Assembly: GCA_041737595.1 (NCBI GenBank)
Contig: JBGSRK010000010.1
Coordinates: forward strand, 126,244-190,243
DNA from: Patescibacteria group bacterium
Lineage (GTDB): Bacteria; Patescibacteriota; CPR2; UBA1875
Direction: 5' to 3'
Length of the DNA stretch: 64,000 nucleotides
Shown here: piece by piece, positions 13,698-52,791 of the stretch
Layout of the letters: each line of letters starts with the position of its first letter
Position numbering within the stretch: position 1 is the stretch's first letter
The notes under the pieces: model-generated
What the model was told of the DNA's origin: nothing
Databases searched by the model: none
What the model saw: the letters and a program-made list of their open reading frames with translations, nothing else
Translations under genes and position numbers: made by a program

Positions 13698-14561
13698 TTA
13701 GCTAATCTCTTTTTCTAAATATTTTTTTAGTTCATCTTTGAAACCATCGTGTTTTAATGCCATTGAGATGGTTGCCTTTAAAAAACCAAGCTTATCACCT
13801 GTATCATAAACTGTCCCTTTGTAATTTTTACCCATTAAACCTTCTTTTTTTGCCATTTCAAGCATCGCGTCAGTAAGTTCTATCTCCCCTCTTTCAGAAA
13901 AACCAACATCTTCAAGATATTTAAATATTACAGGGTCAAATACATATCGCCCAAGGATAGAATAATTTGATGGAGCATCTTTTAGTTTTGGTTTTTCAAC
14001 TACACCTTTTATCATAAATTCTTCACCTTTTTCTTTAGGATCAATAATCCCATATAGATGAACCTTTTCATCGGGGACTTCAGATGCTGTTATTGTTGAA
14101 ATCCCTGTTTTTTCATAATTATCAATTAGGTCTTTTAAACAATCCGGCCCATTTGCGACTAAAACATCTGGGAGTAACACTGCAAATGGTTCATCTCCGA
14201 TAATGTCCTTTGCTCTAAGAACTGCGTGCCCAAGGCCAAGTGGTTCTTTTTGACGAATATAAATAATATTTGCCATCTCTGAGATTGCTTCCATTTCATG
14301 AAGTAGTTCTAATTTATTTTTTTTCTTTAATGCATCTTCGAGTTCATATGAATGATCAAAATAGTCTTCAATTGCAGATTTACCGCGCCCAGTAATAAAG
14401 ATGATATCAGTAATACCCGCTTTAACTGCTTCTTCTACTGCATAATGAATCGCCGGCTTATCAATGATTGGGACCATCTCTTTTGGCATTGATTTTGTGG
14501 CTGGTAAAAATCTTGTCCCAAACCCCGCTGCGGGGATTACTGCTTTTCTAACTTTTTTCAT
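13698..14561 (-). CDS. galU: UTP-glucose-1-phosphate uridylyltransferase
   Basis: KAVIPAAGFGTRFLPATKSMPKEM, RQKEPLGLGHAV, VEKP, GEIELTDA. Confidence 0.96.
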   Translation of the reverse strand: MKKVRKAVIPAAGFGTRFLPATKSMPKEMVPIIDKPAIHYAVEEAVKAGITDIIFITGRGKSAIEDYFDHSYELEDALKKKNKLELLHEMEAISEMANIIYIRQKEPLGLGHAVLRAKDIIGDEPFAVLLPDVLVANGPDCLKDLIDNYEKTGISTITASEVPDEKVHLYGIIDPKEKGEEFMIKGVVEKPKLKDAPSNYSILGRYVFDPVIFKYLEDVGFSERGEIELTDAMLEMAKKEGLMGKNYKGTVYDTGDKLGFLKATISMALKHDGFKDELKKYLEKEIS

Positions 14562-14636: not shown

Positions 14637-14668
14637 CTTATGCTTTAGTAATGTACATTAGTAAAGTG
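14637..14668. repeat. 32-bp direct repeat containing a 28-bp palindrome, downstream of TrpR-like gene A
   Basis: CTTATGCTTTAGTAATGTACATTAGTAAAGTG, identical to 15101..15132. Confidence 0.95.
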
Positions 14669-14704: not shown

Positions 14705-15085
14705 TTATCTTTTAGATATCGGTATTATGCCTGGAATACCCTTGTATTTTACTTTATGACTTTTTGAATAATTAATAATTACATCTTTTATATTATCAAT
14801 ATTTTTTCTAGTATTTCTAGAAGGATTTCTGCGAAAACCATACCCAATATGGTTACTAAGTCTAGCAATAATAGTTGAGCTAACCTTAACTTCTTGTTGA
14901 ATCATTGAATATGAATATCCTGCATTAAGCATTTCGAGTATTTTAAGTCTTCTTGCCATATCATTAATTTCACGAGGAGTTAAAATTCTTTCAAAAAGTA
15001 ACTCAACATCTTTTGTTGTATTTGTAGAGGCAACTATTTTAATTAAATCTTTAATTTCTTTTTCAAACCAGATATCAATTGACAT
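14705..15085 (-). CDS. TrpR/YerC-YecD-like helix-turn-helix protein A
   Basis: LFERILTPREINDMARRL..ML..G.SY..I....VSSTIIARLS matches the TrpR/YerC pattern; AGGAG RBS. Confidence 0.88.
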   Translation of the reverse strand: MSIDIWFEKEIKDLIKIVASTNTTKDVELLFERILTPREINDMARRLKILEMLNAGYSYSMIQQEVKVSSTIIARLSNHIGYGFRRNPSRNTRKNIDNIKDVIINYSKSHKVKYKGIPGIIPISKR

Positions 15086-15100
15086 GAGTTCTCCTTTATC

Positions 15101-15132
15101 CTTATGCTTTAGTAATGTACATTAGTAAAGTG
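15101..15132. repeat. 32-bp direct repeat containing a 28-bp palindrome, upstream of TrpR-like gene A (candidate operator or recombination site)
   Basis: Identical to 14637..14668; starts 16 bp upstream of the start codon. Confidence 0.95.
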
Positions 15133-48644: not shown

Positions 48645-48977
48645 TTAACTCGTGATACTTATAAATGTGCTAATAATAAATCCCGACGCAATAATTATTG
48701 AAAGTCCGACAAGAGAGGCGATTATTATTTTTCTCGCTTCAGTAACCTTATTTTGATCACCACCAGACATAAATAATTTGAATATACCCCAGAAAAACAT
48801 TGAGACTGCTATTGCCCCAACAGCTCCAATTGCTATATTTTTTACTATGTTAACAAAAATAATTAAATCACTCGCGGTAGCGGGGTTTGGACCATTTAAC
48901 CAACTAAAAATACCAGCTGCATTTACTGCTTTTGGTGTTATTAAATAATGAATTATTTCTATTAATGCCATATACAT
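48645..48977 (-). CDS. VirB2/TrbC-like pilin
   Basis: GAIAVSMFFWGIFKLFMSGGD..KVTEARKIIIASLVG. Confidence 0.82.
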   Translation of the reverse strand: MYMALIEIIHYLITPKAVNAAGIFSWLNGPNPATASDLIIFVNIVKNIAIGAVGAIAVSMFFWGIFKLFMSGGDQNKVTEARKIIIASLVGLSIIIASGFIISTFISITS

Positions 48978-49324
48978 GATGCCAGGGTATTTATCCCTAA
49001 AAAATTATAGATTAAAAAATAAGAAAATAAAAGCAACCCAAGGCCTGAAAGTACACCATAAATATACTCTTTTGCTTTGTCTATTTTATTTGTGTCACCA
49101 GCAGAAGTCATCCATAGATATCCAGCAAAAATAAGTACAAGAGTAGCAACGGGGATTAAAAGTCCAGATATCCATTGCCAGACACTACAAATCCAACAAT
49201 CATAATCCATAGAACCCGAAATACCACTACGACATGATTCCCAGGGATCTCCCGGCGCAGCGAAAGCAATCTTTGCATAAAGGTTTAATAAGAAAGAGTA
49301 TAATAATATTTTTTTCAATTTCAT
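48962..49324 (-). CDS. VirB2/TrbC-like pilin
   Basis: LIFAGYLWMTSAGD..KIDKAKEYIYGVLSG; signal peptide ending AFA. Confidence 0.82.
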   Translation of the reverse strand: MKLKKILLYSFLLNLYAKIAFAAPGDPWESCRSGISGSMDYDCWICSVWQWISGLLIPVATLVLIFAGYLWMTSAGDTNKIDKAKEYIYGVLSGLGLLLFSYFLIYNFLGINTLASCIWH

Positions 49325-49387
49325 CTCTTTTATAATATATAAGAAAAAATCTTTTCTCAAGTTCTTTTTATCTAGTATAATAAATAC

Positions 49388-49927: not shown

Positions 49928-49955
49928 CACTACACTACTACGTAGTAAGACAGTG
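49928..49955. repeat. 28-bp palindromic direct repeat, downstream of TrpR-like gene B
   Basis: CACTACACTACTACGTAGTAAGACAGTG; 23/28 identical to 50395..50422, with a 19-bp exact core. Confidence 0.9.
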
Positions 49956-49975
49956 GTAAAAAAATATTTTAAGAT

Positions 49976-50332
49976 TTAATTAGGAATAATTCTTTTAATA
50001 ACAGCAGGAGAACCTTTATAACCACGAGGAGAATATTTATGAATAGGTTTCTTATTATTTATTGCAATCTTTTTAGAAGTTCTTCTAAAACCAAAACCAA
50101 TTTGATTGGCAACCCTTCCTATGGTGGTTGGGCTTACACGAAGTATATCTTGTATCTCTAAATATGAAGTACCCATATCTAATAATCTGACAATTTCTAA
50201 TCTTTTAGCCATATCATTTATTTCACGAGGTGTTAATATTCTATCAAAAAGTACACGAACTTCTTTGTCGCTATTTGTCTTTGCAATAACTTGAATCAAT
50301 TTATTGATTTCTTTTTCTCTCCAGTAATCCAT
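49976..50332 (-). CDS. TrpR/YerC-YecD-like helix-turn-helix protein B (paralog of 14705..15085)
   Basis: LFDRILTPREINDMAKRL..G.SY..I....VSPTTIGRVA..IGFGFRR..YKG.P. Confidence 0.88.
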   Translation of the reverse strand: MDYWREKEINKLIQVIAKTNSDKEVRVLFDRILTPREINDMAKRLEIVRLLDMGTSYLEIQDILRVSPTTIGRVANQIGFGFRRTSKKIAINNKKPIHKYSPRGYKGSPAVIKRIIPN

Positions 50333-50394
50333 ATTATTTATTATACTTATGTTTTTAAATAATTTAAAGATTATAATAAAATCTACACCTATTT

Positions 50395-50422
50395 TGCTAC
50401 ACTACTACGTAGTAATGTAGTG
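50395..50422. repeat. 28-bp palindromic direct repeat, upstream of TrpR-like gene B
   Basis: TGCTACACTACTACGTAGTAATGTAGTG. Confidence 0.9.
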
Positions 50423-50524: not shown

Positions 50525-50552
50525 AAAAGAGCCCGCTTGGGGGAGCGGACTC
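50525..50552 (-). terminator. Intrinsic terminator after recA
   Basis: Minus strand GAGTCCGCT-CCCCCA-AGCGGGCTC-TTTT. Confidence 0.8.
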
Positions 50553-50567
50553 AAAAACAGGGGAAAG

Positions 50568-51602
50568 CTATTTTGTGGGGAAAAATTTATCTCGGATACT
50601 TTTTTCAATTTCATCAAAAGATTTTGGATTATCACGAAGATATTGTTTAGCGGCTTCTCTCCCTTGGCCAATTTTTTCACCTTTATATTCATACCAAGAG
50701 CCAGCCTTAGAAACTATTTCCTCCCTTACAGCGAGATCTAACACGTCGGCTTGTCTAGAAATTCCTTCATTATACATGATGTCAAATTCAGCCGTTTTAA
50801 ATGGTGGGGCTATTTTATTTTTAACCACCTTAACCTTAATATGATTTCCAATTACATTGTCACCATCTTTAATTTGTTCTGTTCTCCGAATATCCATTCT
50901 GACTGAAGAATAAAATTTAAGGGCGTTTCCACCAGAAGTTGTTTCTGGGTTACCAAACATTACTCCAATTTTCATTCTTATTTGATTAATAAAAATAACA
51001 GTCGTGTTTGATTTAGATATAACTCCAGTTAGTTTTCTTAATGCTTGAGACATGAGTCTTGCTTGAAGCCCCATATGTGAATCACCCATCTCGCCTTCGA
51101 TTTCAGCTCTTGGGACAAGTGCTGCAACAGAATCAACAACCAAGACATCCATTGCATTTGAACGAACCAAAGTTTCTGCAATCTCTAGGGCCTGTTCACC
51201 GTTATCTGGTTGAGAGATAAGTAATTTTTCAATATTTACACCGATATTTTTTGCATATTCCGGATCAAGAGCATGCTCTGCGTCAATAAAAGCAGCGAGC
51301 CCACCTCTTTTTTGAGCTTCAGCAATAATATGATAAGCAAGTGTAGTTTTTCCTGAGGATTCAGGACCATATATTTCAACAATTCTTCCTTTTGGAACTC
51401 CTCCAGCCCCTAGGGCTATATCAAGTGACAGGGAACCGGTTGGTGTAGTTTGTACATTTAATTTTGTTGATTCGCCAAGGCGCATAATTGCACCTCGACC
51501 GAACTGTTTTTCAATTTGGTCAACAGCCATATCAACTGCAGTTATTTTACCGGCTAATTCTTTTTCTTTCGCATCTTTTACGGATTTTTTTTCCTCTGGC
51601 AT
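50568..51602 (-). CDS. recA: Recombinase RecA
   Basis: [54 protein letters not shown]. Confidence 0.99.
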
Positions 51603-51707: not shown

Positions 51708-52103
51708 TTATATATGTTTAGTTCTTATGCTTACATTATAATGTTCTTTTGTCACTCTTTTGTCAAGCGAACGGATTCTCGAAACAACCATTTTATCAAG
51801 TAATGAAAGTCGATTTTCTGTTTGTTTATACGAATAATAACTTATTGAATTACCACTATATAAAAGATCGAGATAATATCTTGCTTCAAAAATTGAATTT
51901 CTTACATCTGAAAAATATCTCATTTTATCTTCATCAAAATCTCTTGCTTGTCCTTCAAAAACTGCAACAGGAATTTTAGATACAATTTGACGTAAAGAAA
52001 TAGCCGCACTTTTGTTTTTTTTAGCTCTTCCTGAGACTCTAAAAACTATCATTACAAGTTCGTGTGCTTTTTTCTTTAATTGTTGTTCTATATATTCTCT
52101 CAT
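51708..52103 (-). CDS. Four-helix-bundle protein (23S rRNA IVS protein/Avd-like family)
   Basis: KAHELV..VF.., LRQ..SKIPVAVFEG..R....MRYF...RNSIFEARYYL. Confidence 0.7.
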   Translation of the reverse strand: MREYIEQQLKKKAHELVMIVFRVSGRAKKNKSAAISLRQIVSKIPVAVFEGQARDFDEDKMRYFSDVRNSIFEARYYLDLLYSGNSISYYSYKQTENRLSLLDKMVVSRIRSLDKRVTKEHYNVSIRTKHI

Positions 52104-52124: not shown

Positions 52125-52751
52125 TTAACTAAAATTCTTTATTACCCCGATTACCTTACCTTGGATCATAAATGTGCCAAGTTTAGGGATGATTGATTTA
52201 TGTTCTTTATTTGATGATACTGGTTCAAATATTACTTTATTTTTATCAAGTCTTAATCTTTTTACTGTTGCTTCTGTCCCGATTAAAACAACCACTTTAT
52301 CTCCTGGCAATCCTGAACTTTGTTTTCTAAAAACGATATAATCTCCATTATCAATCCCAGCCATATTCATTGAGTCTCCTTTTGCCCGTAACATAAATAC
52401 GTCTTGAGTTTGTCCAACTAGTTTAGTTGAAATTGGGATCCATTCTTCAATCATTTCTTCTGCCCAAATTGGCATCCCACAGGCAACATTCCCAACAAGC
52501 GGGACTTGAACCATTTCGTCTGGCGCCTTACCTGTTTCATTAGAAACAACAATGATACCACGAGCTTTTCCTTCGATTTTTTTAATGAAACCTTTTGCCT
52601 CCAGAGAGCGTAAATGGGCAACAACTCCCATTGGTGCAGCACAACCTATTTTAAGTTGCAGTTCTCGTACGGTAGGTGCCTGACCAGTTAAATTAATTGA
52701 TTCTTTAATCCAGCCAAGGACTTTTTTCTGTTTTTCTGTTAATTGTTTCAT
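52125..52751 (-). CDS. lexA: SOS repressor LexA
   Basis: LTEKQ..VL, PTVREL, HL..LEAKGFI, GNVACGMP (cleavage site C-G), GDSM (Ser), ATVKRL (Lys); GGGGAG RBS. Confidence 0.95.
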   Translation of the reverse strand: MKQLTEKQKKVLGWIKESINLTGQAPTVRELQLKIGCAAPMGVVAHLRSLEAKGFIKKIEGKARGIIVVSNETGKAPDEMVQVPLVGNVACGMPIWAEEMIEEWIPISTKLVGQTQDVFMLRAKGDSMNMAGIDNGDYIVFRKQSSGLPGDKVVVLIGTEATVKRLRLDKNKVIFEPVSSNKEHKSIIPKLGTFMIQGKVIGVIKNFS

Positions 52752-52791
52752 ATAAGCACTCCCCTTGTATACCACTATTGTACACTATAAC

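Follow-up and report, generated by a model that had tools for sequence, protein, structure and literature searches.

The stretch of DNA analysed here, hereafter the window, comprises 64,000 nucleotides of contig JBGSRK010000010.1 (positions 126,244 to 190,243, forward strand) from a Patescibacteria group bacterium (GCA_041737595.1), and the element in question, cassette B, is a short gene of the TrpR family next to recA, namely gene B, bracketed by two copies of a 28-bp palindrome. The genome holding the window (G000) is available as an assembly of 1.09 Mb with 38.5% GC, distributed over 143 contigs and 97% complete. The two palindromes, which the original prediction had set 467 bp apart at 49928 and 50395, were located exactly in the window at 49928-49955 and 50395-50422, where they form a direct repeat of 30 nt with 87% identity; the 18-mer core common to both has three matches in the window, i.e., the two sites and the reverse reading of the second, for 0.01 expected from 100 shuffles. 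Since the two TrpR-family genes of the window lie on the minus strand, the 50395 copy is the upstream one and the 49928 copy the downstream one. The latter sits, as anticipated, between convergent gene ends, those of gene B and of a membrane open reading frame (ORF).

A second cassette 35 kb away with its own palindrome variant had also been claimed, and it is indeed present, gene A lying between the copies at 14641 and 15105 (Table 1). The two A copies constitute a perfect 32-nt direct repeat with a spacing of 464 bp and share the same three departures from the palindrome as well as the same four flanking bases. The 16-position dyad pattern said to fit the A site and the upstream B site is found without any mismatch at 14641, 15105, and 50395, for 0.14 occurrences expected and with none of 100 shuffles reaching three, but the downstream B site fails it even at up to two mismatches. 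Proteins A and B have in common RILTPREINDMA(R/K)RL and differ in the second helix of the helix-turn-helix (HTH), just as first quoted. Around both cassettes, the repeat scan revealed neither target-site duplications at the edges nor further repeats beyond the palindromes. The context originally reported is likewise in place, with an NTP_transferase gene after cassette A and a type IV secretion system (T4SS) pilin gene near cassette B. Between the upstream B site and the ATG lies a promoter-like match, which is weak evidence since the promoter scan of the cassette B region gave 5 matches for 4.6 expected from shuffles. On the other side of recA, the window exhibits a row made of a lexA-like gene, a gene for a 23S-rRNA-intervening-sequence protein, and recA, an order also encountered in the genomes G001, G003, and G004, cassette B following recA in G000 only.

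Table 1. Features of cassettes A and B and of their neighbourhood in the window (window positions)
Feature	Position	Strand	Remarks
NTP_transferase (galU/rfbA-like) gene	13698..14561	-	Likely target of the A site; orthologue in G002 also with a site ~85 bp upstream
A-type palindrome, downstream copy	14641..14668		28 bp; 36 nt past gene A stop; 80 bp before NTP_transferase start
TrpR-family gene A	14705..15085	-	126 aa; 50% identical to gene B
A-type palindrome, upstream copy	15105..15132		20 bp before gene A ATG, AAGGAG in between; 32 nt identical to downstream copy
T4SS-pilin gene near cassette B	48962..49360		
Membrane ORF, 161 aa	49388..49873	+	Convergent with gene B; orthologue in G002 abuts recA, no cassette between
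B-type palindrome, downstream copy	49928..49955		28 bp; starts 21 nt past gene B stop; between convergent gene ends; 24/28 to B consensus
TrpR-family gene B	49976..50332	-	118 aa; five predicted helices (residues 6-78), low-confidence basic tail ending in conserved YKG
Promoter-like match TTTAAA-17-TATAAT	50340..50368	-	Between upstream B site and ATG; nearly leaderless mRNA predicted; weak
B-type palindrome, upstream copy	50395..50422		28 bp; 62 bp 5' of gene B ATG; downstream of recA terminator
Terminator-like hairpin and T-run after recA	50529..50552	-	Upstream edge of ~650-bp segment absent from G002
recA	50568..51602	-	Co-directional upstream neighbour of cassette B
23S-rRNA-intervening-sequence-protein gene	51708..52103	-	
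lexA-like gene	52125..52775	-	LexA_DNA_bind and Peptidase_S24

The protein family and its predicted dimer

Both proteins match the Pfam family Trp_repressor (PF01371), with 62 bits for B and 56.9 bits for A for a cut-off of 27, and these are the only two matches in G000. In the domain search of the window proteins, the two genes returned only Trp_repressor and weak HTH matches. A profile search of the PDB retrieved the TrpR-like entries 3frw, 3g1c, and 3kor at E 1e-14 to 1e-13, and an AlphaFold2 model of B, based on 29 sequences (predicted local distance difference test, pLDDT, of 83.7), had as its top Foldseek matches 3kor, 3frw, 3g1c, and 1tro (probability 1.00, E 4e-3 to 4e-2). Five helices compose the model (residues 6-18, 22-32, 35-52, 57-64, and 68-78). 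Helix F of TrpR is absent, no helix being predicted after residue 78 and residues 80-118 having a pLDDT of 52-67, and the Pfam match stops at profile position 74-76 of 88. From the alignment, the subfamily can be recognised by [IV]LT[PT]REIND, G[FY]GF, and the YKG at the end of its tail. When 1.84 billion representative sequences were searched with a family profile, 2418 members came out at E <= 1e-3, but matches extending to the last few profile positions, YKG included, amount to only about 16 clusters at 50% identity. As modelled, this is a small TrpR-derived subfamily in which helices A-E are kept and the last helix is replaced by the basic tail. The same family profile search also brought up P0015 (1112 aa) and P0021 (740 aa), which are arrays of HTH repeats with 7-12 tandem stretches matching the TrpR-like HTH profile together with many other HTH families.

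The likeness to HisR (YerC) and to the YerC/YecD repressors of Firmicutes resides in PF01371 and in a small all-helical protein, the solved 3kor, 3frw, and 3g1c being the best matches, whereas A and B both remain below the cut-off of NCBIfam yecD_yerC (TIGR02531; 42.1 and 38.2 bits for B and A, respectively, cut-off 42.2) and terminate in the YKG tail instead of the last helix. Respective to TrpR of Escherichia coli, the fold and, in the predicted model, the intertwined dimer are alike, but both proteins are again below the equivalog cut-off (TIGR01321; 43.4 bits for B and 36 for A, cut-off 67.25) and the C-terminus is different. The homodimer model passes with 0.70 versus 0.00 for the best of three controls, with an interface on residues 5-48 as in the TrpR core, a contact agreement of at least 94% over the runs and a partner pLDDT of at least 67; of the proteins solved as pairs, 20 of 30 attain this mark, versus 1 of 23 of those solved as single chains. 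Such a pass may nonetheless reflect memory of the solved TrpR dimers.

Conservation of the bracket, the site types and the targets

PF01371 is present in 18 of the 61 genomes searched, G000 included, and four genomes of the same order have 2-5 copies. From those genomes, one genome-contig scan and one metagenome-contig scan, 36 distinct subfamily proteins were gathered, which are not independent, several being orthologues. Scoring was applied to the 34 genes with both 200-bp flanks available, L079 and L085 being excluded with one flank shorter than 150 bp; L022 is outside the 36, as its frame runs on up to the upstream stop and offers the ORF caller no start codon. Genes lacking the subfamily motif, i.e., the canonical YerC-like L010-L016 and L027 and the distant TrpR-like L021, L024, L025, and L032, were not counted.

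An exact segment of 17-38 nt is common to the upstream and downstream flanks in 29 of the 34 subfamily genes, for shuffle maxima of at most 14 nt (50 shuffles per locus), and among the five failures L029, L078, and L095 have imperfect copies on both sides, which brings the bracketing to 32 of 34. Homologues carrying only the upstream site are thus not what is found. As a background, 17 of 1097 ORFs of G000 (1.5%) share at least 15 nt between their flanks, both TrpR-like genes being among the 17. In the subfamily cassettes, the site centres are found 15-73 bp beyond the stop and 26-180 bp ahead of the start, and the flanking copies occur in direct as well as in inverted orientation. In 24 cassettes, the two centres are 421-563 bp apart, for which a Rayleigh test of helical phasing gave p ~0.04 for a period of 10.5 bp, 0.19 for 10.0 bp, and 0.37 for 11.0 bp; this is not counted as evidence because the cassettes are not independent. 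Outside the subfamily, the distant TrpR-like L021, L024, and L032, from other families in the phylum, have flanking copies too and L025 has none, while no flanking copies appear in the flanks of the canonical YerC-like genes.

The bracketing is not limited to the regulator gene. In G002, a sister genus of G000 (recA 85% identical), yraN (UPF0102) lies between two copies of the TrpR-type site of that genome, 413 bp apart (L074:1501-1526 and 1914-1939), between rnhB and nusA. In G000, a lone 28-bp palindrome of a third type, TACTCTCATACATCGATGTATGAGAGTG, is present outside the window between rnhB and yraN (C54:90307-90334), the position of one of the two yraN-bracketing sites of G002; its outer ACT...AGT ends are as in the A and B sites, and the assembly has no third TrpR-like gene to match it. 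Also outside the window, the palindrome ATGTTCCACGTGGAACAT occurs twice (C67:100479 and C67:101416) around a 294-aa gene (100522..101406) which is not TrpR-like, so that such a gene too is bracketed by a repeated palindrome.

Genome-wide, a scan of G000 allowing up to 6 mismatches in 28 over 1.09 Mb retrieved 6 A-type sites (consensus CACTTTACTAATGTACATTAGTAAAGTG) and 5 B-type sites (consensus CACTACACTACTACGTAGTAGTGTAGTG); as such, two TrpR-like genes, and only two, stand beside two recurrent AT-rich palindrome families. Long palindromes as a whole number 47 in G000 versus 2 in the shuffled genome. Seven of the sites are solo, all of them intergenic, nearer to perfect palindromes than the flanking copies and mostly 49-95 bp ahead of a start codon, well above the background frequency that had been named as the outcome adverse to the original prediction. 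The A-type solo sites lie (i) 49 bp before a release-factor gene, (ii) 95 bp before a membrane-protein gene, (iii) between bacA and a divergently oriented XerC/D-like gene, and (iv) before a GreA-like gene; the B-type ones lie before dprA, before a cofD-like gene, and beside a GC-rich stretch. Around the solo sites, Rfam and tRNA scans gave only an L10 leader and sub-threshold matches. Two other palindromes of G000 were met outside the window. The GC-rich 26-bp family GGACGGACCTTCCGGAAGGTCCGTCC and its variants occupy five places (C56:442, C71:2115, C71:18258, C71:50203, and C80:5579) on contigs with GC-rich ORFs and may represent another repeat system or foreign or contaminant DNA. The palindrome ATGTTACCGTACATCTACGGTAACAT (C108:22700-22726) lies beside a gene whose orthologue in G015 is next to the similar ATGTTACCCTAGATGTAGGGTAACTT (L103, around 1307), and both may be the conserved site of another regulator.

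Considering the relatives, each type of site goes along with a type of protein. Helices of the form MSPTT[LI]NRLATK pair with GTTACACTAATATGTATTAGTGTAAC at four loci, MSKVTI helices with GGTACAC(T/A)AGACTAGTCT(A/T)GTGTACC at two loci and VSSG helices with CACTTCTCTACATCGATGTAGAGAAGTG at two loci, the theme across site types being an xACT(A) motif twice per arm, 5 bp apart, around a centre of 6-8 bp. Across clades, the association of SPV helices with CTAATAT half-sites (L017, L028, L076, and L090) and of SK helices with C(T/A)AGACT half-sites (L030 and L096) is suggestive only. G002 has a single TrpR-like gene and eight identical, fully symmetric sites, and five relatives each have 7-19 occurrences of ACTACACTA-N8-TAGTGTAGT (up to 3 mismatches allowed), the reversed pattern used as a control having none. 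Solo sites at unlinked loci are of the type that flanks the resident paralogs, which is a stronger argument for a trans-acting link than covariation between protein and site. On these grounds, i.e., paralog-specific palindromes, both copies in homologues and matching unlinked sites, the co-diversification of cognate protein and site pairs put forward originally is supported.

The targets are conserved between genera as well. In G002, sites are found in the xer/bacA divergent region, ~85 bp before a galU-like gene, between efp and a tlyA-like gene, and on both sides of yraN and of the TrpR-like gene. The xer/bacA and galU-like positions are occupied in G000 as well, there by the A-type sequence, which differs from that of G002 at ~8 of 28 positions; orthologous promoters have therefore retained their site even as its sequence shifted in step with the protein. 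Three further targets are common to G013, G015, and G017. As a separate observation, L030, L031, L033, and L096 have, 46-94 nt after the downstream site, a co-directional gene for a seemingly secreted cysteine-containing protein (N-termini read by eye); cassette and gene may form a conserved regulator-target pair.

Proposed regulation and known counterparts

The most economical reading of this organisation would be a Saccharibacteria-specific branch of TrpR/HisR-type autorepressors, where A and B would be paralogs and DNA-binding repressors from the TrpR/HisR family (PF01371), within a small Saccharibacteria subfamily. In its full form, which we hold to be probable, these autorepressors have paralog-specific composite operators bracketing their own gene, act by looping and/or as a roadblock, and control small regulons. 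Each protein would bind its own 28-bp dyad-symmetric operator, probably as an intertwined dimer, and two dimers per site would be possible because each arm has two xACT motifs 5 bp apart. With one operator at the promoter of the regulator itself and the second 3-99 bp past its stop, the protein at both ends would cooperate by looping out ~420-560 bp of DNA or by acting as a pair of roadblocks; the bracket would thereby shut off the expression of the regulator and insulate its gene from neighbouring transcription. The same operator ahead of other genes would give each paralog a small regulon, namely (i) for A, its own gene, the galU/rfbA-like gene, release factor, GreA, bacA/xer, and the membrane protein, and (ii) for B, its own gene, dprA, the cofD-like gene, and one further site. 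Binding, stoichiometry, repression rather than activation, and the looping or roadblock action are what we infer from this organisation.

HisR/YerC is a TrpR-family repressor with 20-bp palindromic operators of lineage-specific consensus, printed as cacTTTAnnnnnnTAAAgtg; about half of the genomes surveyed have autoregulatory sites ahead of hisR, upstream being the only position described in the available passages, and the TrpR half-site is given as GNACT (PMC9413887). The outer arms of the A site, CACTTTA...TAAAGTG, resemble the HisR consensus cacTTTAn6TAAAgtg; a palindromic operator and, presumably, frequent autoregulation via the regulator's own upstream site are further points in common. 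The differences are an operator of 28 bp here versus 20 bp and a second copy after the stop in most members here, to which are added housekeeping targets rather than histidine genes and the presence in one genome of several paralogs having a site of their own. With E. coli TrpR the likeness would extend to half-sites of the GNACT kind, to the tandem dimer binding announced for TrpR in the title of the PDB entry 1trr, and to autoregulation, whereas no tryptophan genes are among the targets here and the operators bracket the gene. Placing a second operator straight after the regulator's stop codon, which is near-universal in the subfamily, is not described for TrpR/HisR regulators in the available passages. 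A literature search, with many subscription journals beyond its reach, found no published account of Saccharibacteria transcription-factor binding sites or regulons and, in titles and abstracts, no flanking-operator autoregulation comparable to the cassettes.

A gene lying between its own operators is otherwise familiar from lambdoid immunity, where cI is located between OR and OL, CI oligomers loop the DNA, and specificities diversify together. The co-diversified specificities and the tight autoregulation by looping would be alike, the loop being a conjecture here, whereas the cassettes are chromosomal, with single 28-bp sites versus triple operators, ~0.45 kb versus a 2.4-kb loop, and another protein family.

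The downstream copy, the alternatives and the meaning of the bracket

The role of the downstream copy is where the explanations diverge. Past the stop codon, the orthologues L037, L046, L088, and L092 align over nothing but the 26-bp palindrome, and this sole conserved island shows that the downstream copy is under selection; one of the four has the asymmetry at the centre of the palindrome reversed, which fits a symmetric protein site. Upstream, the same orthologues share the palindrome plus 12 nt directly 5' of it, TGTATACTTGTT, possibly a -10 region. That the palindromes are RNA hairpins in the 5' and 3' untranslated regions, i.e., terminators or stabilisers to which the protein link is incidental, is very unlikely, even though most downstream copies form perfect 13-14-bp stems (-8 to -21 kcal/mol) at the position expected of a terminator and most subfamily genes have no other GC-rich hairpin after them. 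A U-tract follows 1 of 26 downstream sites, arm mismatches compatible with G:U pairing show no preference for the sense strand (5 sense versus 7 antisense downstream, 8 versus 2 upstream), the A downstream copy attains only -2.4 kcal/mol, the site type tracks the resident paralog at unlinked loci included, and the central asymmetry flips between orthologues. With such scarcity of U-tracts and absence of G:U strand bias, an intrinsic terminator or RNA hairpin was rejected for the downstream copy, and the palindrome would act as DNA, not RNA. A different proposal makes the downstream copy the operator or promoter module of the following gene, the bracketing being a by-product of a regulator sitting beside its target. 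It can claim the 12 of 26 cassettes in which a co-directional ORF starts 22-121 nt on, with the galU-like gene after cassette A among them, the same 4-nt extension after the palindrome in both A copies and the fact that inverted downstream copies have only convergent neighbours (4/4 versus 3/8 for direct ones, counted by hand). It is nonetheless an unlikely explanation of the bracket, as no such gene follows in 12 of 26, cassette B included (two being undetermined), the palindrome is conserved in L037, L046, L088, and L092 without a co-directional gene after it, and in L090 and L097 a terminator-looking hairpin comes directly after the site (sequence read by eye). Since 12 of 26 cassettes lack the co-directional gene, the downstream copy would not be simply the operator of the next gene, and under the autorepressor reading looping and roadblock would be the best candidates for its role.

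Recombination and mobility call for separate consideration. The 28-bp sites, taken as 11 + 6 + 11, recall dif sites in length and layout, and one A-type solo site of G000 as well as one site of G002 lie directly beside a XerC/D-like recombinase gene. That they are Xer-type sites bounding exchangeable modules is nevertheless hardly credible, as there are several site types per genome, each tracking a TrpR paralog and not a recombinase, the eight identical symmetric sites of G002 would scramble the chromosome if recombined, and the site on the xer side is also before bacA, which fits an operator in a divergent promoter region. Regarding mobility, REP/RAYT systems (repetitive extragenic palindromes and their associated tyrosine transposases) have a transposase gene flanked by a palindrome that is also dispersed intergenically, and their paralogs pair with their own palindrome families, an architecture similar to the present one. 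In a portable or selfish version, site-gene-site would move as a ~0.5-kb module and seed solo palindromes, the HTH-only protein relying on host recombination. The comparison at the recA locus, proposed originally, favours modularity, for in G002 the membrane gene and recA have orthologues that converge, with 31 bp and only a terminator hairpin between the two stops, and G000 has ~650 bp extra, cassette B included. The galU-like gene has a solo site in G002 versus site-gene-site in G000, the two copies of the perfect A repeat deviate from the palindrome in the same way, sites of one genome are nearly the same, and the neighbour genes differ between most cassettes. On the other hand, the protein has no nuclease, transposase or recombinase domain, nor the HUH/Y1 transposase domain of RAYT, but Trp_repressor with weak HTH matches on five helices and a tail. 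Each type has 5-6 dispersed intergenic copies in G000, and for one pattern the relatives have 7-19 per genome; such numbers (5-19, not hundreds) are tens of times below those of REP/RAYT, and solo sites precede conserved target genes, orthologous in different genera, as in a regulon. Flanking copies are both direct and inverted. Paralogs in one genome are only 47-67% identical, which gives no sign of recent copying; viral contigs and phage records yielded no relatives of the subfamily and plasmid records one distant YerC match only. In two DNA sequencing runs containing the stretch (one study, one run possibly from the source sample) the cassette keeps its form and joints that skip it are absent, all joints seen lying in recA and coming from other organisms; no RNA run was listed as containing the stretch. 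The spread as ~0.5-kb units and the minimal selfish element of the original prediction were accordingly not upheld, and a selfish or portable cassette is considered improbable. A further reading, likewise improbable, has semi-autonomous regulatory cassettes in which the HTH-only protein and its 28-bp palindrome would propagate together by duplication, conversion or recombination at palindromes, seeding and homogenising solo copies and rewriting operator sets when specificity changes; if true, this would be a REP/RAYT-like partnership without transposase, building regulons in the minimal genomes of the candidate phyla radiation (CPR).

Several points weigh against the bracketing autorepressors themselves. 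The perfect 32-nt repeat around gene A points to duplication or gene conversion, not independent selection, because both copies share the three departures and the four flanking bases. Sites in one genome are near-identical over 26-28 bp, which is more information than a 1-Mb genome needs and what copying would also give. The centre of the upstream B site lies ~75 bp before the predicted start, which is no classical occluding position, and the joining of dimers as tetramers is a supposition. Among about 25 solo sites, 7 are apparently between convergent genes; this has little weight as the orientation of neighbours comes from crude ORF calls (at least 60 aa, greedy non-overlap), by which at least L102 was wrongly called convergent. 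In genomes with multiple paralogs, the most frequent type of solo site combines traits of two flanking types, and hybrids at the half-site level or tandem sites are numerous; the one-protein-one-site picture is therefore too simple there. Lastly, the test of covariation across homologues had a divided outcome: recognition helix and half-site do covary (Mantel r 0.25, reached by 19 of 2000 permutations) but not specifically, since the N-terminal region (r 0.21, 17 of 2000) and helix D (r 0.22, 34 of 2000) do so nearly as well, and this seemingly real covariation could reflect shared descent.

If probable autorepressors of this kind are retained, the subfamily and its easily read 28-bp operator per paralog provide a concrete, testable regulatory code for one lineage, whose predicted targets concern translation, transcription, the cell envelope, and DNA processing. 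Should the bracket operate as a loop or double roadblock, it would be a compact means of insulating a regulator in a gene-dense genome, and it could serve as a design for orthogonal repressor/operator pairs.

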